From assembly GCA_019058015.1 (NCBI GenBank), contig JAHLWH010000018.1:1-16602 (forward strand): DNA of 16,602 bases, written 5' to 3'. Positions 741 to 11,042 of the stretch are shown one piece after another (position 1 is the stretch's first letter; each line of letters opens with the position of its first letter). The translations under genes and the position numbers were made by a program. This DNA is from Promethearchaeota archaeon. Its GTDB lineage: Archaea > Asgardarchaeota > Lokiarchaeia > Sigyniarchaeales > SOKP01. Below the pieces are notes generated by a model. That model had not been told where the DNA came from and made no database searches. It worked only from the letters and a program-made list of their open reading frames with translations.

Positions 741-2402
741 TTAGTTATGATTATTCGATTTTCTTATTTTTTTATGTTTTAAAATTTGACCATTTAAAAC
801 GCCTAAATGCTCTCCTTTTGCAACAGTGATTTTACCGTTTACAATGACATAATCAATACCCTCGGGATATTGACGACCATTTTCATATGTCGAATTATCT
901 CTAATTGTTTGAGGGTCAAAAATAACTAAATCGGCTTTATAATTTTTTTTGACTATTCCTCTATCTCTAAGTCCCAAAATGCCTGCGGGTAAAGAAGTCA
1001 TTTTCCGAATAGACTCTTCTAAAGATACAATTTGCTTCTCTCTAACATATCTTGATAAGATTCTAGGAAAGGTACCATAAGAACGGGGATGGGTATTTCC
1101 TTCAATAACTAAAAATCCATCAGAACCTACACAAACAAAATCTTGTTTAAATAATGATAAAATACTTTTCTCCTCACTCATCTGCCTCATGGAGATCATT
1201 ATGGAGCCTTCTTCATCTCTAATGAAATCTAATACAGCATCATAAAATGATCTTTTTGGATAAAGAATTTTTAGTCCTTCGCCTAAATATTTTCCTTCAA
1301 TATGATGGTTTTTTAAAACACTAATAATTCTTATGTCTTTCTTGAAAGAGGAAAAAATTAGTTTTTTCATTAAGAGTTTTGGAATAATCCGAATAATGAA
1401 AGGAAGATCTGATAAAAAAGTCGAGAATATCATATTTAGGATTTCTGTAACAATTTTTTTCCTTGACTCTGAATTGGTTAAATTTTGTACAAAATCATCA
1501 TAAACCCAAGGGTTAAGTAGAATGCCTGATAAGCTGGTTGAAGATTCTTCATAAGGATATAAATCTGCATGAAGAAAAATTCCTTATTCTTTAGCATTTT
1601 TAATCAGTTTTATGATATCAGAAGTTAATTTCCATGCATATTTACCTATAGTTTTTAAATGAGAAATATGGGCACGAATATTCGAATTTTTGGCAATCTC
1701 TATAACCTCTCTAATTCCTAGTTCCATTATCCTTGTTCCTTCATTTCTCATATGTGTATCATATAAACCTCCATAATTATTTACAACCTTACAAAGTTCA
1801 ATAATTTCATATGTTGGTGTGATTGAACCCGGAGGATAAACCAATCCCGTAGATAAACCAAAGGCGCCCATTTCCATTTCCTTTTTTACTATTTTTTTCA
1901 TTTCCTCCAGTTCTTCTGATGTAGCTGGATGATCTTCCAATCCTAAAATGCAAACTCTTACATTTCCGTGGGGTATAAAAAAAACAAGATTCGTTGAAAC
2001 GCCTTTTTTCTTGAGTGCTTCCATATAATCTTGAAGGGAATCATATAATTGTGATGCTGATGAACCAAAAGCCTTAGATATAAAGTTAGAATAATATTTT
2101 CGAACTTTTTCATTTGCGGGTGCTCGCCCAATTCCACACATCCCTACTACAAGTGTTGTAACACCCTGCATTATGGAGGCTTCTGCTTTATTTACTTCTA
2201 ATATAGTTAAATCAGCATGAGAATGCATGTCAATAAACCCGGGTGCAATTATTTTATTTGAAACATCAATTATATCATATCCATCTCCCTCTAAATTTGA
2301 ACCAATCTTTAGAATTTTATTATCTTTTATTGCAATATCGGATTTATACCTTGAAGAACCAGTTCCGTCAATTATCCATCCATTTTTTAGTAGAATTTCC
2401 AT
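741..2402 (-). pseudogene. N-acyl-D-amino-acid deacylase (D-aminoacylase, amidohydrolase_3 family) interrupted by a single in-frame TAA at 1584-1586
   Basis: ORFs 1584..2402 and 741..1433 are in the same frame. The gap translates without further stops as AKE*GIFLHADLYPYEESSTSLSGILLNPWVYDD... Family motifs present: IIDGTG, APGFIDMHSH, QGVTT..GMCG, GLSTGLVYPPG, HMRNE, HISHLK, DxYPY, GSDG, HPRSYGTFPR, ADLVIFDP. Restored length is 553 codons. Confidence 0.85.
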
Positions 2403-2545
2403 TAATTCTTTACCTTAATACTCTTATCATCAATAAAAACGGTTGATTATATTTTGAATTAATTAAACGATCTTAATTTTTATTAATTATTTTCGATATC
2501 TTAAGATTTTTTTAGGTAAGAATTAATATTTATGTTAGTAAATTG

Positions 2546-3241
2546 ATGTTTGAAAGATATGAATCCCGTTTTGAAGCGGGAATTATTTTAACGAAATTCA
2601 TAGAAAAGTTAAATCCAGAATTAAACGATTCAATTAGAGAAAATTCCAAGAATTATTTTTGTTTTTGTATTCCAAATGGCGGAGTACCGGTTGCTGAAGG
2701 GTTTTGTAGTGAATTCAATATATCATATGATTTATTAATTGTAAGAAAAGTTAAGATACCGTATAATCCAGAGGCAGGATTTGGTTCAGTTACAACAGAT
2801 GGAACTGTCCTATTAAACGATTATCTGTTATCTCATTTAGGATTAAATAAGGCAGAAATAAGTAAATCAATAGAAATAACTAAACAAGAGATCCAAAACA
2901 GGTTAGAGTTTTATAATATTTCTTTAGATTTAGAAAATAGATATTCTCATATTAAAAATAAAACACTTTTTGTCATTGATGATGGATTAGCTTCTGGTTT
3001 TACGATGTTAGCTGCTATAAAAATGTTGAAGAAGTATAATCCAGCGTCTATTTATGTTCCCGTACCAACAGCATCGAAAAGTGCAGAGAAATTAATAATA
3101 AATGAGGTTGATGGTCTGTTTTGTCCTAATATACCAAATACATGGCATTTTGCCGTTGCAAATGCATATAAATATTGGTATGATGTACCTGAGAAAGAAG
3201 TGAAAGAGATCCTTTCTAGATCTAAATTTTACCTAAAGTAA
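2546..3241 (+). CDS. Type I phosphoribosyltransferase family protein
   Basis: PRPP-binding loop VIDDGLASGFTM, plus PNGGVPVA, IVRKVKIPYNPEAGFGSV and VPVPTAS motifs of the uncharacterised PRT subfamily. ATG at 2546 is preferred over TTG at 2543. Confidence 0.9.
   Translation: MFERYESRFEAGIILTKFIEKLNPELNDSIRENSKNYFCFCIPNGGVPVAEGFCSEFNISYDLLIVRKVKIPYNPEAGFGSVTTDGTVLLNDYLLSHLGLNKAEISKSIEITKQEIQNRLEFYNISLDLENRYSHIKNKTLFVIDDGLASGFTMLAAIKMLKKYNPASIYVPVPTASKSAEKLIINEVDGLFCPNIPNTWHFAVANAYKYWYDVPEKEVKEILSRSKFYLK
3197..3241 (+). repeat. Direct repeat copy 1: 3' end of the PRT gene (EVKEILSRSKFYLK*), candidate attL
   Basis: 37/45 nt identical to 7769-7813; 13/14 residues and the TAA stop are conserved. 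Confidence 0.85.
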
Positions 3242-3362
3242 TTTATAAAAAAAATCGGGTATAACCATAAATTAATTTTTTTTGAATTTTAATAATTTAT
3301 GTATTAAATATAGAAATTTATCAATTTTCTTTAAAGTGCATTTGCTTTAAATATTAATATTT

Positions 3363-3390
3363 ACTTATCATAATGTGAATTATGACGAAA
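3363..3390. other. dif/Xer-like 11-6-11 inverted-arm site (alternatively a transcription-factor operator), copy 1
   Basis: ACTTATCATAA-TGTGAA-TTATGACGAAA. CATAA-N6-TTATG core as in known dif sites. Arms match 16320-16347 at 17/22 positions, while the spacer differs. Confidence 0.45.
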
Positions 3391-3645
3391 TGGTAAGGTT
3401 TCTAAAAAATTCGTTTAAAGGATTTCCCCATTTAATACAAACTACTAAAAAAATAAAGAATATATATTATAAAATAAAAGTTAAAAAATCATTTAACCCA
3501 CAAGATATTTAAATTTATATAAGTCATTAACCTCCAATTTAATTAAAAAAGAAACTTCAAGAATGATATATTTAAATAGTTAAATATAGAAAATTTTCAT
3601 TAATAGATAAGACAAAACGCGAATTTCAATTGGATATTTTTTATT

Positions 3646-6600
3646 ATGAAAGAATTTAAGGTTAATAAGTACATCACTCTAAAATTGGAAAATGGCCAGA
3701 CAGTAATCTATGTTAATGGTGAGTGGTTTTATCAATGCAAATTTTTATTACTAAATATTCCCGTTGATGAAATTAAATCATTTGACGAAATTGAGTCAAT
3801 TGACGAGGCTGTAGAAAAATTAGACAAATCTTTGGAGGGAACGTGCGATAGTATTATAATTCCTCCAGAAGTTGAATTTTGGGGACATTGTTCAAATTTA
3901 CAAGTATGGTATGAAAATGGTTACAACACAAGATTGTTGCATAGAAACATAGCTTTTCCGTTATTAAGAAAGCTAGCAAAAGCCAATGATCCTGTTGCAA
4001 AGAAAGTATTTAATGAAGAGGTTGCTAAAAGGCTAAAGAGCGGTTACCCTTCAGTAGTGGAATATTTGGTATCAAACGGATATATTGAGTACGAGATCAA
4101 CGAGTACATAACTCTAAGTTTGGAAAGTGAAGAATATGAGGATGAAACCCTTTACTCCAGTTATAAAGAATCCGAATATTACAAAGAAGATTACGAAGAA
4201 AGAATATATAGTCTATGGTATGTTGTAGTTCATATTAAAGAAAAAAGGTATATTAAATTTGAATTGTGGCTTTTCGAATATTTTTTCGAAGAACCCGAAT
4301 TTCTCGAAAGGTGTGACGAATGTATCTGGTGGGATGACAGAGAGAAGATTTATTATATTGGTGAAGATAGAGAAAAATACTATGAAACGGATGTGAAAGC
4401 TCTATTAAATCAATTTTTTAAATGCTGTTCAAAAGTAAAATTCTGGGCTAAAAGCAATTACGATTCCAAATTAATAAATCCGATTTTAGGATTTTCTATA
4501 CTCAAAAAATTAACTGAAATAGGAGAGCCAATATCTAATAGAGTTTTCAAAAAGGAAATCATAAAAAACCTTCGAAATTTCCAAACATATTTTTTATCAT
4601 TTTTTCTAGAAGAGGATTACCTGTCTTATTTAAATAAAAATGATTTCGAATCAATCAAACTAAATCCCGAAATACCGAGCTATATATTAGATGTTTTAGA
4701 AAACCTATTTTCTGAATACTTTGAGAAACTTTGCGAAATAGCACCGAGTTTATTCGAAGGAGTTTTTCTCGAAGTGTTAAAGAAGAACGATTTTAATTTA
4801 ACTAAAGATCTAATCAGAAATGGTTTTCTTATATATCTGAAAGAAGATGAATTAAAATCAAGGTTAGCGGAACTATATTCAGAAAGATTAATTCCGTTCT
4901 ATACTGTTTTTAAAAGTAAAGAGATTAAATTTATAGATGAAAAAAGCGAATTAGGTTTAAGAGTAGAAACGATTGAGGAAATTTCAAATCTCGAATCCAT
5001 AGGGAATCCTAAAAAAATAAAAAAATTAATATTAGATAGCAGGAAGGATATTTCTAATATTCAAGGACTTGAAAAATTTACAAATTTAGAAGAATTATGT
5101 CTCCATGGTAATGAGATTTCAGAAATTAGAGGTCTTGAATCTCTTCTTAATTTGAAAAAATTAGACCTTTCGAGAAATCATATTTCTGAAATCAAAGGAC
5201 TTGAAAATCTTACTAAATTAGAAGAGTTAAATCTTAATTCCAATGAAATTTCTGATATTTGTGGTCTTGAGAAATTAACAAATTTAAGAAATTTGAATCT
5301 TTCCCAAAATAAAATACATGAAATTAAGGGACTTAAAAATCTCGTAAATTTAAGAAAATTATACTTAGGTAATAAGATTTCAGAAATTAATGGACTTGAG
5401 AGACTTAAAAATTTGGAGGAATTATGGCTTGCAGGAAATATTACAGAATTAAAAAATCTGGAAAATCTCAAGAATTTACGGTATTTAAACCTTAAAGAGA
5501 ATAAGATCTCTGAGATTAAAGGCCTTGAAAATCTTAGAAGATTAGAGAAATTATTACTTAATAAAAATCAAATCATGGAGATAAAAGGTATTAAAACGTT
5601 AAAAAATCTAAAACACTTGGGACTTTGTGATAATCAGATCTTCGAAATTAAAGAAATTGAAAATCTTCCTAATTTAGAAGAATTAGAAATAAAAGGAAAT
5701 AAGGTACCATCTCAAATTATTAACCAATTAGGTGGATATGATTGTCAATACGCCAAAGATATCCAAAATTTTATCGAATATTCCCGCTTAAAAAAAGAAG
5801 GTTCTATTGATTATGTTACATTTAAAAGTATAAAATACAACGTTTTCAATAATAAGCTCGAATTAAGGCATTTAGAGATAGAAGACATCTCAGAAATAGT
5901 TGGTTTGAATAGATTAATTAAATTAAATGAGCTGAATCTCGAGGGAAACCGAATTTCTGAAATAAAACATCTCGAAAAACTCATCAATTTAGAGATTTTA
6001 AACCTTAATGAAAATCAGATTACCAAAATAAATGGTCTCGAAAAGCTCATTAATTTGGAAGTGTTAAACCTCAACAAAAATCATATTTCAGAGATTAAAG
6101 GGTTAGAAAAGCTTGTAAATTTAAAATATTTAGATCTTGATGGGAATAAGATCTCTGAGGTTAAAGGACTTGAATATCTTACTAAGTTAGAAAATCTAGA
6201 ATTAAGAGAGAATAAGATACCTAAACAACTTTTAGATGAATGGGGGTGGGGGTGGAGACCTCAAAAATTAGTAGAATATTGTCGGTTGAAGAAAAAAAAG
6301 CCGTTCGAATTTGTACTTTATAAAGGTAATAAGTATGAAATCTATAATGATAAATTAAATTTAAATAGTTTAGATATAAACAACATTTCTGAAATCATTG
6401 GTTTGGATAAATTTATAAATTTAAAAGAGTTAGACTTAGAACATAATCAAATTTCCAAGATTAGTTGTCTCGAAAAACTCACAAATTTAAAGGTTTTAAA
6501 TCTAGGGTGTAATAATATAAATAGAATAGAATCTCTTAACAATTTAATTAATTTGGAAAAATTATATCTGTGTAGCAATCAAATTCATAAAATTGAAGGT

Positions 6601-7389
6601 CTTAATAATCATATTAATTTGGAGAAATTAGATCTGGGAGGTAATCAAATTCGAGTAATTAATAATCTTGATAAACTTAGAAATCTAAAACAGTTAGATA
6701 TTGAATCAAATCAAATAACTGTAATCGATGGACTCGAAAAGCTTGTAAATTTAGAATCTCTAAATTTAAACAATAATCAAATCTTAGAAATAAAGGGACT
6801 TGATAATCTTACAAACCTAAATATATTAAAAATATATCATAATAAGATTACGAAAATACAAGGGCTTGAAACTCCCGTTAATTTAGAGAAATTAGATCTT
6901 TTTAATAATCGAATCACTGAAATCAAGGGAGTGGATAATCTTATAAATTTAAGGGAACTTAATTTAGGGGATAATAGTATTAGCGAGATAAAAGGACTTC
7001 AAAATCTGAAGAATTTACAAGATCTACGACTATTTAATAATCATATTTTTGAAATCAAGGGAGTGGATAATCTTAAAAATTTAAGGGAACTTGATTTAGG
7101 GGATAATAATATCAGCGAGATAAAAGGACTTCAAAATCTGAAGATTTTACAAGATCTACGGCTATTTAATAATCATATTTTTAAAATCAAGGGCTTAGAA
7201 AATCTTAAAAATTTAAAAAAGTTAAAGATTGAAAAAAACTTGATTTCTCGGAAAATAATAGATTCTTTAGGAGGATATCAAAGGTATCATACTGGAACTG
7301 GAATGAAAGCTCCCACAAATGGTGTAGAGGTCCCTCAAAATTTCGTTAAATATTGTCAACAACAAAAAAATTTAGAGAAAAAGATCTAA
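3646..7389 (+). CDS. Large leucine-rich repeat protein (SDS22-like 22-aa LRRs) with duplicated Lokiarchaeia-type N-terminal domain
   Basis: About 30 LxxLxxLxLxxNxIxxIxGLxx repeats in three blocks. The N-terminus FKVNKYITLKLE...EFWGHCSNLQVW.E..Y.TRLLHRNIAFPLL.KL is a domain I recognise from Loki LRR proteins. A degenerate second copy starts at YEINEYITLSLE. Confidence 0.92.
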   Translation: MKEFKVNKYITLKLENGQTVIYVNGEWFYQCKFLLLNIPVDEIKSFDEIESIDEAVEKLDKSLEGTCDSIIIPPEVEFWGHCSNLQVWYENGYNTRLLHRNIAFPLLRKLAKANDPVAKKVFNEEVAKRLKSGYPSVVEYLVSNGYIEYEINEYITLSLESEEYEDETLYSSYKESEYYKEDYEERIYSLWYVVVHIKEKRYIKFELWLFEYFFEEPEFLERCDECIWWDDREKIYYIGEDREKYYETDVKALLNQFFKCCSKVKFWAKSNYDSKLINPILGFSILKKLTEIGEPISNRVFKKEIIKNLRNFQTYFLSFFLEEDYLSYLNKNDFESIKLNPEIPSYILDVLENLFSEYFEKLCEIAPSLFEGVFLEVLKKNDFNLTKDLIRNGFLIYLKEDELKSRLAELYSERLIPFYTVFKSKEIKFIDEKSELGLRVETIEEISNLESIGNPKKIKKLILDSRKDISNIQGLEKFTNLEELCLHGNEISEIRGLESLLNLKKLDLSRNHISEIKGLENLTKLEELNLNSNEISDICGLEKLTNLRNLNLSQNKIHEIKGLKNLVNLRKLYLGNKISEINGLERLKNLEELWLAGNITELKNLENLKNLRYLNLKENKISEIKGLENLRRLEKLLLNKNQIMEIKGIKTLKNLKHLGLCDNQIFEIKEIENLPNLEELEIKGNKVPSQIINQLGGYDCQYAKDIQNFIEYSRLKKEGSIDYVTFKSIKYNVFNNKLELRHLEIEDISEIVGLNRLIKLNELNLEGNRISEIKHLEKLINLEILNLNENQITKINGLEKLINLEVLNLNKNHISEIKGLEKLVNLKYLDLDGNKISEVKGLEYLTKLENLELRENKIPKQLLDEWGWGWRPQKLVEYCRLKKKKPFEFVLYKGNKYEIYNDKLNLNSLDINNISEIIGLDKFINLKELDLEHNQISKISCLEKLTNLKVLNLGCNNINRIESLNNLINLEKLYLCSNQIHKIEGLNNHINLEKLDLGGNQIRVINNLDKLRNLKQLDIESNQITVIDGLEKLVNLESLNLNNNQILEIKGLDNLTNLNILKIYHNKITKIQGLETPVNLEKLDLFNNRITEIKGVDNLINLRELNLGDNSISEIKGLQNLKNLQDLRLFNNHIFEIKGVDNLKNLRELDLGDNNISEIKGLQNLKILQDLRLFNNHIFKIKGLENLKNLKKLKIEKNLISRKIIDSLGGYQRYHTGTGMKAPTNGVEVPQNFVKYCQQQKNLEKKI
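6919..7182 (+). repeat. Tandem 132-bp duplication (two LRR units) inside the LRR gene
   Basis: 6919-7050 and 7051-7182 differ at 6 of 132 positions. A partial third copy begins at 7183. Confidence 0.95.
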
Positions 7390-7451
7390 AGGCTCACATG
7401 GTTAAAAACTTATTTAAAGTATTTCATAGGTTTTTCTTTAAGAAATGTGTG

Positions 7452-7557
7452 AGGGGCTTGACCAATTCAGTGACCCCCCAAAGTAATACAGGATTAGAGT
7501 ATTAATTTGAATGTCTTGGGGATTGCTGACCGGCGAATGGTTTACATTCTGACCCCT
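7452..7557. ncRNA. Candidate structured ncRNA or foldable ssDNA element, family unknown
   Basis: About 46% GC (51/110 over 7451-7560) in much more AT-rich flanks. Nested complementary segments: AGGGG/CCCCT, TCAG/CTGA, CCCCAA/TTGGGG, TAATAC/GTATTA, plus side hairpin GAATG-N5-CATTC. Confidence 0.45.
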
Positions 7558-7768
7558 GTGTGTTAATTAATAATAGAACAATTATTAATTTAAATTTAAG
7601 GCAAAAATATAAAAAATTTTAATCAGGTTACAATTTTAATAAATCTATTAAATTGTTCCATTTTTGGCAAGAGTTAACTTCGATCAAATATACCTCATTT
7701 ATTTGCCCCATTTCAAGAATAGACCGAAGCTTATGGTAATAATTTACATAATTACTGAAGAATTGTTA

Positions 7769-7813
7769 GAGGTAAAAGAAATCCTTTCAAAGTCTAAATT
7801 TTATTTAAAGTAA
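7769..7813 (+). repeat. Direct repeat copy 2: displaced 3' fragment of a PRT gene (EVKEILSKSKFYLK*), candidate attR
   Basis: gag gta aaa gaa atc ctt tca aag tct aaa ttt tat tta aag taa versus 3197-3241. Six synonymous third/first-position changes and one R>K codon change. Confidence 0.85.
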
Positions 7814-7851
7814 TAATTAGAAAAATTAATAAAAATTTGGACTCCTAAATC

Positions 7852-7886
7852 TTTATATATAATTGATACTGTGAGTGTCATAGTAT
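7852..7886 (+). promoter_or_regulatory. TATA box plus palindromic operator upstream of padR (probable autoregulatory site)
   Basis: TTTATATA at 7852-7859, followed by ATACTGTGA-GTG-TCATAGTAT (7866-7886, 8/9 inverted match) covering the expected transcription start region. Confidence 0.65.
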
Positions 7887-7945
7887 ATAATTAACAATAT
7901 AAAAATAAATACTATAATAAAATAAAAAATAAAAAACACACAGAG

Positions 7946-8491
7946 ATGAGAAAAATTATAAGACGAGTAAAAGAATTAGGGCCAACAGCTTTAATTGCAT
8001 CAAAAGAATTCAGAAGTTTCGTTGAAAAATTTGAATCTGAAATAAATCGCGGCATTAGTACACTATGCATATTATCCATTATTAATCAAGCAGGAGATAA
8101 AGGAATGTATGGCTACAAAATTCTTAAAGAATTAGAAGAACAAACAAATAATATGTTAGTTATTGAGGAGGGTACCCTTTATCCTCTTCTGAGAAAACTT
8201 GAACGAGATAAACTGATTAAATCGGAACGGAGAGAATTTAGTGGAAGACCAAGAAATTATTATTTCATGACTGAAAATGGTCTTAAGATCTACAATCATA
8301 TTAATGGCTTTTTCACCAAACTAACTGAATCTATTTCACCATTGATGGATATGAATGTTAATTTAAAAGAGGATTATATTTATTGCCCAAATTGTGCGAA
8401 TAAAATTGATATTTCTAAAGAAGATTTGTATTTTTGCGAGATCTGTGGTTTAAATATTAGAGACTTAAAAGAAAGGAGGTTAAAAAAATGA
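7946..8491 (+). CDS. PadR-family transcriptional regulator with C-terminal zinc ribbon
   Basis: RG...LCILSII, MYGYKILKEL, EEGTLYPLLRKLE and GRPRNYYFMTENG PadR motifs; C-terminal CPNC-x12-CEIC. Confidence 0.92.
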   Translation: MRKIIRRVKELGPTALIASKEFRSFVEKFESEINRGISTLCILSIINQAGDKGMYGYKILKELEEQTNNMLVIEEGTLYPLLRKLERDKLIKSERREFSGRPRNYYFMTENGLKIYNHINGFFTKLTESISPLMDMNVNLKEDYIYCPNCANKIDISKEDLYFCEICGLNIRDLKERRLKK

Positions 8492-9540
8492 GTCAAGATA
8501 TGGAAGCAATGGTAAAAAAATACTTAAAAAATGTGAAGGAAAAATTACCTGAATGGTTAAAAGACAAAAAGAAGGAAGCCAAAGATATTTTGGCTGAACT
8601 TGAGGGACATATTTGGGAAAAAGCTGAAGAATTATCAGATATTAATCAACCTACTGAGGATTCGGTACGATTAGCAATAGCCCATATGGGAACACCAGAA
8701 AGTATAGCAAGGGAGTACAAGCGTCGAGGAACACCTAAATATTACATAACAGAGGAACTTTGGCCACTTTATACGAAAGTTTTGAAAATAATACTTGTGG
8801 TAATAATTGCAATTGCTATTTTTTCTACAGTATTAAATGTAATGACAGGTAACTTAGAAGAGGCTTTAAGTTTTTTCGGTTATTTCAATTATTTCATGGG
8901 ATTTTTTTCAGCATTTACAATAGTGTCAATAATTTTTGTTGTTTTATCAATGGAAGGTTATTTTCCTGAAGATTTCAAATCAGAAAGAGAACTTAAGAAG
9001 GAGGCTCGTCGGCTTGAAATCGCTCGAGAAAAGGGATTACCTATATCTCCCAGGACTGGGAAACCTTTAAAACCTTTTATAAGTCCCATTGGTGAAATTA
9101 TTGGAGGAATCATTGTGGTTAGTATTGGTATATTTCTTATAACACTTCCTATTCCAGGTTTATTTAATTTAATGAATCCGGAATTTCTATTAATACTTCG
9201 TATTTTTGGAATGTTTACATTAATAGAAGGAGTATTGGATACAACTCGTGGTGTTATTGGAAATTATCAAGTAAAGACCCATCAGGTAATTCATATAATA
9301 ACGATTGGAGTTAAATTAGCTGTAATACCATTAGCTGTTATTCTTTGGAGTCGCCCTGATATAATTCCTTTTCTAAATTGGGATGATTCAACAAATACTT
9401 TGGTTTATATAGGAGTATCACCAGAATTTTATGATTTTTGTAGAAATTTAATGGCTGTAGTAATAGTAATAATGATAGTTGTTCCAATAGAAGACATATA
9501 CAAAATCATAAAGTTGGAAAAATATAAAGTAAAAAATTAA
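8488..9540 (+). CDS. Membrane protein with N-terminal HAAS-type (PadR-associated) helical domain
   Basis: YLKNVKEKLP...DILAELEGHIWE...AIAHMGTPESIAREY matches the HAAS/DUF1700-like pattern. About six hydrophobic segments follow. ATGA overlap with padR implies translational coupling. Confidence 0.8.
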   Translation: MSQDMEAMVKKYLKNVKEKLPEWLKDKKKEAKDILAELEGHIWEKAEELSDINQPTEDSVRLAIAHMGTPESIAREYKRRGTPKYYITEELWPLYTKVLKIILVVIIAIAIFSTVLNVMTGNLEEALSFFGYFNYFMGFFSAFTIVSIIFVVLSMEGYFPEDFKSERELKKEARRLEIAREKGLPISPRTGKPLKPFISPIGEIIGGIIVVSIGIFLITLPIPGLFNLMNPEFLLILRIFGMFTLIEGVLDTTRGVIGNYQVKTHQVIHIITIGVKLAVIPLAVILWSRPDIIPFLNWDDSTNTLVYIGVSPEFYDFCRNLMAVVIVIMIVVPIEDIYKIIKLEKYKVKN

Positions 9541-9547
9541 AAATCTA

Positions 9548-9564
9548 TTTTTTTTTTCTTTTTT
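9548..9564 (+). terminator. Oligo-T archaeal-type terminator after the padR operon
   Basis: T10-C-T6 tract starting 8 nt after the stop codon at 9540. Confidence 0.5.
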
Positions 9565-9566
9565 AA

Positions 9567-9959
9567 TTAAAGTTTTAATTCTGCTTTAATGTAATTCTCA
9601 TTTTTCTCTTGAATGGTTACGTTTTTATCATTTATGAGAATTGATGTAATTTCTAATATGGTTGGTATTAAAACCAGAATTTTAGAAACTTTTTTGCTAA
9701 TTTCTATCTTTATTGATTTGTCCTTCAGTTCTGCTTTAATATCAATGATTTCTTCATCATCTATGATTTTATATTCAATTTTATCTGTTTCTTTTCGAGG
9801 CGCTATATATAAGGTTAAAGTATCCAAATGTATTTCATCCACATATTGTATCACCGGTCCAAGCGGTAGGATCGTCCCCCCTTTAATAAAGAATGGATGT
9901 TTCAATCGTTCTTTAAGATAAAAAAGAAAGAGTTTTAAAATATTAATTTGTAATGCCAA
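9567..9959 (-). pseudogene. Probable C-terminal remnant of a GH31 glycoside hydrolase (distal beta domain, DUF5110-like)
   Basis: PFFIKGGTILPLGPVIQYVDE resembles the GH31 P(L/V)F(V/I)(R/K)xGxI(I/L)PxGPxxQY junction motif. No catalytic domain is present upstream, the start is TTG, and the first ~20 residues look unrelated. Confidence 0.6.
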
Positions 9960-10079: not shown

Positions 10080-11042
10080 ATGATGATTCAGACTAATCAA
10101 GAGATACAAGAGAGCCAAAAGTTAATATTAAATCTTAAAAAAGAGAAAGATGTTACAATTCTTGCTCATTATTATCAAACCTTGGAAATTCAAGAGATCG
10201 CAGATTTTGTAGGAGGTTCTTTAGGACTTTCAAAAATTGCTAGAGATCATATCAATACAAAAAATATCATTTTTGCTGGAGTTCTTTTTATGGCAGAAAC
10301 GGCTTCCATTTTAAATCCCGCAAAAAGAGTGCTAATGCCAGATAAACAAGCCGGTTGTCCTTTAGCTTCATTTCTTGATGGAAATACGGTGAATACGTAT
10401 AAGGAAAAATATCCGAGGGTGCCAACAGTTGTTTATATTAATTCTACGGCTGAAACAAAAGCAGAAACCGATGTTGTATGTACATCTTCAAATGCAATTA
10501 AGGTAGTACAAGGAATACAAAATGAATTTAAATCTAAGAAAGTTTTATTTGGACCAGATGAGAATCTTGCTGATTATGTGAAACAAAAAACAGGGATAAA
10601 TATCATCAATTTGCCAGATGAAGGATTTTGCTATGTTCATAATGTCATTAAAGATTTGGATGTTATTAAAGTTAAAAAGGAACATCCAAATGCATTAATC
10701 ACTGTACATCCAGAATGTAAAAGGGAGGTAAGAGAGCTTGCTGATCATATAGGTTCCACTAAGGGAATGTATGATTACGTTAAAAAAAATGCTTCAAAGG
10801 GAAATGAATTTATAATTGGTACTGAGCTTGGATTCGTCCAACGAGTTCAAAAAGATTTTCCAAATAATAAAATTTATCCCATAAACGAAAATTTTATTTG
10901 TAGAAATATGAAACTATCCACTTTAGAAAAAATATTTAATTTGCTAAATAATTTGAATAATGATAAACATAAAGTCACAGTACCAGACAATACTGCAAAT
11001 AAAGCAAGAATTAGTCTTGAAAAAATGTTAAAATATTCCTAA
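10080..11042 (+). CDS. nadA: Quinolinate synthase
   Basis: ILAHYYQ, FAGVLFMAETA, AGCPLA, YINS, CTSSNA, PDENL, CYVH, HPEC, GST, GTE, CRNMK. All three [4Fe-4S] cysteines are present. Confidence 0.96.
   Translation: MMIQTNQEIQESQKLILNLKKEKDVTILAHYYQTLEIQEIADFVGGSLGLSKIARDHINTKNIIFAGVLFMAETASILNPAKRVLMPDKQAGCPLASFLDGNTVNTYKEKYPRVPTVVYINSTAETKAETDVVCTSSNAIKVVQGIQNEFKSKKVLFGPDENLADYVKQKTGINIINLPDEGFCYVHNVIKDLDVIKVKKEHPNALITVHPECKREVRELADHIGSTKGMYDYVKKNASKGNEFIIGTELGFVQRVQKDFPNNKIYPINENFICRNMKLSTLEKIFNLLNNLNNDKHKVTVPDNTANKARISLEKMLKYS

Follow-up and report, generated by a model that had tools for sequence, protein, structure and literature searches.

A leucine-rich-repeat gene islet between two diverged ends of a phosphoribosyltransferase gene in a Promethearchaeota chromosome, and its possible import by recombination

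How does a chromosome come to hold one very large gene between two copies of the end of a neighboring gene? The question is raised by a 16,602-nt contig (C219) of a Promethearchaeota archaeon, analyzed here at its full length and called the window; the genome it belongs to comprises 3.84 Mb in 283 contigs, with 29% GC. In this window, a phosphoribosyltransferase gene (PRT) is followed by a gene for a long leucine-rich-repeat (LRR) protein, and the last codons of PRT then recur in direct orientation ahead of a padR-family regulator gene. An earlier note on this DNA, made from the sequence alone, had described the region between the two PRT tails as an integrated cassette of the kind formed by e14 and phage 21 at icd of Escherichia coli. 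We find that one part of that description stands, namely an inserted cassette with empty alleles in relatives and with two ends that were each selected as functional alleles, and that the other part, the e14-like mechanism, is not supported. The reading that we prefer, and to which we give about an even chance, is that positions 3242 to about 7823 form a strain-variable islet of 4.5 kb with a single LRR gene, imported by recombination with a related lineage, and not a site-specific element.

The two tails are the starting point. The last 14 codons of PRT and its stop (3197-3241) recur at 7769-7813 with 37 of 45 nucleotides and 13 of 14 amino acids in common, exactly as the earlier note had counted; the translations are EVKEILSRSKFYLK and EVKEILSKSKFYLK, each followed by a TAA stop. 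Six codons differ silently and one changes from AGA to AAG, replacing arginine by lysine. Third codon positions hold six of the eight base differences (binomial P = 0.020 against 1/3), seven of the eight are transitions, and the repeat contains identical cores of 8 nt (ATCCTTTC) and 11 nt (TCTAAATTTTA). An independent repeat search returns the same pair as family D11 (3196-3253 against 7768-7825; 58 nt, 79% identity). Further copies of the 45-mer, for which the earlier note proposed a search, are lacking: across 7,657,648 positions on both strands of the 283 contigs, no third site matches at 31/45 or more, and the next-best score inside the window is 27/45. A degenerate pattern for the same 14 residues plus TAA has 0 matches in a species-representative collection, from which the organism's own or very near records may be left out and in which the tails of close relatives differ by a residue.

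The resemblance to PRT stops abruptly ahead of the second copy. An ungapped codon comparison of PRT with the orphan side collapses directly before 7769, and the whole PRT protein, compared by tblastn with positions 7390-7945, finds the 14-residue tail alone (E = 5.8e-6); the next match, at E = 0.12, lies on the other strand. Decayed PRT sequence ahead of 7769 was considered as a candidate and rejected, neither tblastn nor blastn finding any. The codon comparison and tblastn agree with the earlier note on this border. Logan contigs of sequencing runs X1 and X3 span both occupied junctions (3187-7011 or 3187-6947 on one side; 7115-8597 or 7115-7901 on the other), so the occupied form cannot be put down to chimeric assembly in this one record; because the runs may be the source samples, they are not independent support.

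What lies between the tail copies is a genuine insertion, for which relatives have empty alleles. At five loci, padR comes about 135 nt after PRT: in the same-genus genomes G001 and G004, and on the metagenome contigs L046, L047, and L048. These five loci amount to four distinct sequences, the tail of L047 being identical to that of G001. In blastn against G001, window positions 764-3241 and 7768-9588 align to adjacent DNA, and G004 behaves likewise; the 46 bases of the relative that align to one tail copy of the window align to the other as well. In addition, a contig of run X5, which comes from an unrelated study, joins 3241 to 7824 via AAAACTAAAT. Run X5 covers the islet at low depth and patchily; the joint from 3241 to 7824 alone is used here, and uncovered parts are not counted as evidence. 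The spacer AAAACTAAAT is present in four of the five empty loci, and G004 has AAAACTAAAA in its place. Together, the empty alleles and the X5 joint uphold the claim of the earlier note that the DNA between the copies was inserted.

Could the empty sites be deletion products, formed by recombination between two tails? We reject this origin because the empty sites have the bases of the 3197 copy at positions 3, 6, 12, and 36 of the repeat, and also at position 37 with the exception of G004, which there has the base of the 7769 copy. We also reject it because the empty sites have T39 and A42 of their own (G004 diverges over the last codons), together with their own 10 nt after the stop; a crossover between the two tails of the window would not yield this combination. 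Their bases at positions 21, 23, and 24 are mixed. The agreement between empty-site tail and 7769 copy that the earlier note had in view is thereby missing; the second copy matches no sampled allele.

The site behind PRT carries other cargo in a relative, a possibility that the earlier note had raised. In the sister species G002, the DNA 15 nt past the PRT stop is the end of a convergent LRR-family gene of 391 aa, which is followed by a second one of 392 aa; these genes have the opposite orientation, and their conserved N-terminal domain (N-domain) shares about 68% nucleotide identity with that of the window's LRR gene. The padR side of G002 lies on another contig, unbridged to the PRT side; here, padR is preceded by a repeat protein with KYDSSG motifs, and no orphan PRT tail is found. 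In the more distant G003 and L049, PRT is followed by nadA.

What, then, is the second tail? It has the appearance of a functional PRT allele's 3' end, derived from an unsampled and more divergent lineage, and we read it in this way because it is equidistant from the sampled alleles, its changes are silent, and its third-position divergence is high. The five changes specific to the orphan tail (positions 3, 6, 12, 36, and 37) are all silent, and six of its 14 third positions diverge, compared with 2-26% (mostly 6-14%) in neighboring genes against the sampled relatives. The silent bias fits the proposal of the earlier note that both ends were selected as protein in separate lineages. The same data bear on a local event, in which the insertion made a 45-nt target duplication and the downstream copy then decayed. 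Such an event would suit the preponderance of transitions (7/8), and the intergenic DNA adjoining the islet is itself only 83-88% identical to relatives. Decay is at odds with five orphan-specific changes that are all silent, with third positions holding 6/8 of the differences (P = 0.020), and with the analogous bracket at locus L153, described below, where 25 of 25 changed codons are silent, a pattern that decay cannot produce. The known target duplications of the transposase type are also far shorter than 45 nt. We consider a local event very improbable.

Ancestry around the islet was followed at positions that distinguish G001 from G004. The window sides with G004 over 773-2434 (a single patch near 1092-1500 is G001-like) and again over 7823-9546; it sides with G001 over 2441-3228, that is, over all of PRT up to the islet. 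PRT positions 2891-3196 are 97.1% identical to G001, 96.7% to G002, and 91.8% to G004, and at the protein level the PRT of G002 comes closest (96% identity). From about 8260, identity of the right flank to G004 rises to 97-100%, and the intergenic DNA adjacent to the islet has 83-88% identity to relatives. A tract of G001/G002 type extends about 750 nt beyond the repeat, inside G004-type background, and the nearest relative changes at the border of the insert, as is looked for in import by recombination. On the simplest reading of these sequences, a single tract made up of a G001/G002-type PRT and the islet following it was introduced into a G004-type background, and the LRR genes behind PRT in G002 fit such an import. 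A crossover restricted to a 45-nt att site can hardly account for donor-type sequence that spans the whole of PRT, which points to import by homologous recombination. The analogy with e14 and phage 21 at icd is left unsupported by the same observation, all of PRT (2441-3228) being donor-type in G004-like flanks. The two cases are alike in a duplicated and mostly silently changed gene 3' end, with the intact gene on one side and an orphan end on the other; they differ in that the islet has one cellular-type gene, no integrase or phage gene, and donor-type sequence over its whole target gene.

The import that we favor builds on what is observed directly: an insertion, empty sites, mosaic ancestry, an absence of mobility genes, and similar brackets elsewhere. 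The incoming tract would have contained a G001/G002-type PRT, in full or in its 3' part, plus the LRR gene located downstream of PRT in the donor. Homologous recombination in or before PRT would have set the left end. For the right end, there are two options: an illegitimate joint 45 nt before the stop of the resident PRT, in which case the orphan tail would be the recipient's own allele, or another homologous crossover, immediately past a remnant that the donor had carried beforehand. The orphan tail would be the leftover of a displaced, more divergent PRT allele, and its differences would be silent because each allele had served as a functional gene up to the time of their juxtaposition. We infer the order of these events, the type of joint at 7768/7769, and the identity of the donor. 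A repeat-flanked deletion and other insertions and deletions in the same neighborhood are also counted in favor of import, as are the PRT remnants of other genera and the ten further brackets in this genome that are described below.

Several points weigh against this account. Neither an ortholog nor a donor of the window's LRR gene is found in 60 family genomes and the species-representative scan, in which the best non-self N-domain reaches 66-68%. With 35-37/45 against every sampled allele, the orphan tail agrees with neither of the two ancestries, the G004-like one of the background and the G001-like one of PRT, and the account has to assume a third, unsampled lineage. The divergence of that tail at 6/14 third positions has P = 0.004 if the rate is 12% and P = 0.13 if it is 26%, the value for nadA against G001. 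The G001-like patch over PRT could stem from a separate recombination event and adjoin the islet by chance. Finally, a 45-nt repeat ending exactly at a stop codon is also the look of tyrosine-recombinase att sites in gene 3' ends, and two other LRR-family loci with the same bracket could point to a dedicated mechanism.

A mechanism of that kind would be an integrase-less site-specific cassette, or a tycheposon-like satellite, whose circular form would carry a mimic of the PRT tail as attP and be integrated at the 3' end of PRT, in trans, by a recombinase of the host or of a helper. It would account for a 45-nt direct repeat that ends at the stop codon and contains identical 8- and 11-nt cores, and for the existence of empty sites. 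The tyrosine-recombinase search of the genome that the earlier note called for yields one full gene and one fragment, and there are three serine-recombinase matches; these tyrosine and serine recombinases could act in trans. The bracket architecture is shared by the LRR-family loci L153 and L138, and small integrase-less circularizing elements occur in other Asgard archaea, according to passages of PMC11529989. Against the cassette stand the donor-type sequence over the whole of PRT, beyond the repeat; PRT break points that vary between genera; and the cargo of G002 at the same spot, without an orphan tail on the padR side. The 45-mer has no further copy in the genome, and 0 tails coding the same peptide appear in the species-representative collection (own or very near records may be left out). 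Viral contigs yield neither a relative of the LRR N-domain nor an exact copy of a 23-mer from the GC-rich stretch to the right of the LRR gene. The circular or excision junction that the earlier note had suggested looking for is not seen in the contigs of X1 and X3, which drop rare forms. Mobilization in trans, as part of the e14-like model, is unsupported by the tests that could be run, and we regard the cassette as rather unlikely.

The islet itself shows no signature of mobility. Its open reading frames (ORFs) of at least 60 aa are the LRR gene and an antisense ORF of 97 aa inside it; neither is a recombinase, in keeping with the earlier note, and a Pfam scan of the islet returns LRR families only. 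The islet has no tRNA and no Rfam match at E <= 1, its GC content equals that of the host, and Y1 transposase is absent from the genome. At the islet ends, neither inverted repeats (181/300 shuffles reach the score) nor direct repeats (69/300) go beyond shuffles, and the terminal inverted repeats with short target duplication of a transposon or miniature inverted-repeat transposable element are not found. The dif-like palindrome that the earlier note had singled out (3367-3386) is a unique 20-mer, about 125 nt inside the islet and not at its border. Its relaxed form, CATAA-N6-TTATG, has 9 matches in the genome, compared with 0-18 (mean 6.8) for permuted half-sites; it occurs at chance frequency, and the islet lacks the Xer/dif border sites of integrative mobile elements exploiting Xer (IMEX).

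The non-coding parts of the islet were also compared for structure and origin. A structured element had been proposed in the earlier note, and this proposal is not sustained: the element gives z = -2.0 on the plus strand, and the GC-rich stretch 7440-7565 is no better than shuffles on the plus strand (z = -0.6) and folds moderately well on the minus strand, into several stems (-34.6 kcal/mol, z = -3.0). Rfam has no match to it, and searches of 134 family genomes find no homolog. On the X5 contig, a variant of this stretch has 5 changes; three pairs are compatible with the minus-strand fold, and one is broken. On the other side of the LRR gene, positions 3422-3545 (124 nt, AT-rich, with promoter-like boxes) are 85% identical to an intergenic segment of contig C503 of G002 (L098 1501-1624), which adjoins an unrelated 186-aa gene. 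This module is found nowhere else in the window's genome and may be a shuffled promoter module or a small RNA. With the exception of this match in G002, the non-coding flanks of the islet give short AT-rich matches (E about 1e-4 to 1e-8) against the 134 other family genomes, and these are treated as noise.

A Campbell-type single crossover would dispense with a recombinase altogether. Here, a circularized chromosomal fragment of a diverged relative, carrying a PRT tail and an LRR gene, would have recombined within the 45-nt tail. Such an event accounts for direct repeats that end at the stop and vary in length (45 nt in the window, 77 at L138, 110 at L153) and silent divergence without a recombinase, and G002 does have LRR genes directly behind PRT. 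However, the attached tail is common-type and the orphan tail foreign, both through position 37, and the 10 nt past the orphan stop are also unlike those of the empty sites, so no single crossover point in the repeat yields both junctions. Moreover, the G001-type PRT tract is left unexplained, and just 8-11 nt of perfect identity are available for recombination. We judge this route improbable.

How does an islet imported by recombination compare with known systems? Homology-facilitated illegitimate recombination and flank-mediated islet exchange at hot spots are described for naturally transformable bacteria. The PRT locus resembles them in its conserved anchor gene, mosaic ancestry, lack of mobility genes, variable cargo in a sister species, and fragments of a displaced allele; it differs in that the host is a Loki-type Asgard archaeon, the leftover is a neat in-frame tail of 14 codons, and the type of joint is a presumed one. 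Tycheposons of marine cyanobacteria target tRNA genes, and their full elements have dedicated tyrosine recombinases. They share with the PRT locus cargo-only segments, bracketed by partial 3' ends of the target gene, in a strain-variable island; in contrast to them, the PRT islet lies behind a protein-coding gene and no full element was found. Within Asgard archaea, passages of PMC11529989 describe elements of Atabeyarchaeia: small inserts, from 1.3 kb, are present in some cells only, a 2.6-kb one is without an obvious integrase, reads show excision and circularization, and one att site has 11 nt. Small inserts in Asgard chromosomes are common to both cases, whereas excision is shown by reads there and contigs alone are at hand here. 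In a search of the literature on Asgard mobile elements and Lokiarchaeota LRR proteins, which took in passages of PMC8813620 and PMC11529989, we found no description of LRR cassettes or gene-tail remnants in Lokiarchaeia.

Is the scar at PRT an isolated case? Other genera have PRT scars with other break points. In G006 (other genus), PRT codons 1-75, at 70% nucleotide identity, lie 3.8 kb upstream of the full gene (L035 4971-5207 and 8972-9688), and two membrane proteins and a winged-helix regulator occupy the space between. In G019, a disrupted PRT without about residues 137-166 is split over two contigs (L037 5002-5463, L038 1191-1415), with an LRR-family gene directly behind its N-terminal part. 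No recombinase is found among the intervening ORFs at either of these scars. An apparent PRT fragment in G009 was rejected: two contigs overlap there with identical sequence.

Brackets were also sought around LRR-family genes. The window and those 31 of 50 loci whose flanks were long enough were screened for direct repeats up to 3 kb away on each side. Eight loci beat the best of 150 mismatched pairs (33.4 bits), and two of them, L153 and L138, have the bracket architecture of the window. At L153, on a Promethearchaeota chromosome, the last 41 codons of a 125-aa gene, which looks Roadblock-type from its relatives, are repeated 2.6 kb away (7794-7903 and 10410-10519); there are 28 base differences, 25 silent codon changes, and 0 replacing ones, the protein being identical, and the bracket encloses a truncated LRR-family N-domain gene among its cargo. 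At L138, the repeat covers 27 codons of an Fe-S protein gene, with 9 silent and 4 replacing changes. The other repeats are tandem paralogs (L108), two cold-shock-like ORFs (L144), the 5' ends of two ORFs (L154), and short AT-rich matches (L141, L140). Empty sites of L153 and L138 were sought in relatives of G151 and G152; these have only 66-77% identity and are not syntenic on the cassette side.

Such brackets extend beyond LRR genes. A self-comparison of the window's genome gives ten more, each consisting of a full gene, 0.5-5.4 kb of DNA, and a diverged 3'-end remnant, with repeats of 41-394 nt at 81-93% identity (for example, C264 608-6502, C240 25653-30452, C195 11750-15276, and C84 913-2622). 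In the six brackets that were scanned, the cargo is ordinary: a glycyl-radical enzyme with activase and transporter, a transporter with a GH2 glycosidase, a GT87-like glycosyltransferase with a helix-turn-helix protein, esterases, and an oxidoreductase. The ten brackets may be scars of allele replacement or segmental duplication. Flanking repeats of at least 40 bits occur at 6 of 32 family loci and at 14 of 300 random ORFs (P = 0.007); because this count mixes tandem paralogs with remnants, no specificity for LRR genes is claimed.

These loci lend themselves to a wider proposal, which we think unlikely: that Promethearchaeota LRR-family genes travel as integrase-less cassettes that use a captured, silently diverged housekeeping 3' end as a recombination handle, with PRT, L153, and L138 as three instances of one exchange mechanism that shapes LRR repertoires. 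If it were true, the target gene would stay intact at each insertion, and gene-tail handles would define a gene-cassette system of a new kind among the archaea related to eukaryotes.

What does the islet carry? The LRR protein has a conserved N-domain of about 160 aa, a weaker second copy of it, and then about 800 aa of 22-residue (66-nt) repeats of the internalin type. The gene is, by its sequence, a member of a large, fluid Loki-type family. Matches to its N-domain (first 150-165 residues) are found in 57 of the 61 family genomes (50-66% identity; as many as 23 in one genome), and the species-representative collection adds 50 further loci, the best at 68%. The window's genome has four more copies (C201, C240, C189, and C269); G004 has one match and G001 one weak match. 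The N-domain finds no sequence match in PDB, and in the Atlas it finds only hypothetical Promethearchaeota clusters. Its AlphaFold model (mean predicted local distance difference test score 77.3) has four strands and a helical repeat, and Foldseek gives no PDB match to it at E <= 0.001. The idea that the N-domain is a mobility enzyme was set aside, there being no evidence for a nuclease or recombinase; an absent match proves nothing in itself.

Loki-type Asgard archaea have large, fast-changing families of LRR proteins, and the PRT locus is a clean before-and-after example of an LRR gene entering one of their chromosomes, with exact borders, empty alleles, other cargo in a sister species, and evidence for co-import of PRT. 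The locus suggests that the turnover of LRR genes can be explained by recombination between related lineages, with no need for dedicated mobile elements. In-frame, silently diverged gene-tail remnants are easily searchable scars of such imports.

The features of the locus are collected in Table 1. The genes of the window follow the order GDPD-like gene, amidohydrolase gene (minus strand), PRT (plus), LRR gene (plus), padR, HAAS/permease-prefix gene, a short ORF, nadA, and others. PRT matches no specific NCBIfam family at its cut-off.

Table 1. Coordinates of PRT, the islet, and the adjoining regulator gene in the window
Feature	Positions	Strand	Description
PRT	2543-3241	+	type-I phosphoribosyltransferase fold, 232 aa, TTG start; Pfam PF00156 (7.2e-14)
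Repeat copy 1	3197-3241	+	functional last 14 codons and TAA of PRT
Left non-coding part of islet	3242-3645		404 nt, GC 17.6%; promoter-like AT-rich module and palindrome 3367-3386
LRR gene	3646-7389	+	1247 aa; Pfam LRR_4 (1.2e-93) in 15 stretches; 66-nt repeat families D1-D3
Right non-coding part of islet	7390-7768		379 nt; GC-richer stretch 7430-7560 (43% against 29% in the genome)
Repeat copy 2	7769-7813	+	orphan, silently diverged PRT tail; no PRT homology before it
Ten bases after orphan tail	7814-7823		TAATTAGAAA; unlike AAAACTAAAT/AAAACTAAAA of all empty sites; shared sequence from 7824
padR-family regulator gene	7946-8491	+	Pfam PF03551 (2e-18); directly follows PRT in empty-site relatives

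Two neighboring genes show changes of their own. The amidohydrolase gene (741-2402, minus strand) is a single frame of 554 codons with one in-frame TAA at 1584-1586, where six relatives have a sense codon: AAA in G001 and L047, GAG in G004, L046, and L048, and GAA in L049. The TAA is either a fresh nonsense mutation, which would make the gene a pseudogene, or a sequencing error. On the other side of the islet, the 130-aa ORF at 9567-9959 (minus strand) is the remnant, after an internal deletion, of an 843-aa gene that is intact in G004 (L033 6749-9280); about 2.1 kb were lost between two short similar repeats. Compared with the window, G004 also has about 1.4 kb of extra DNA, with two more ORFs, before nadA.

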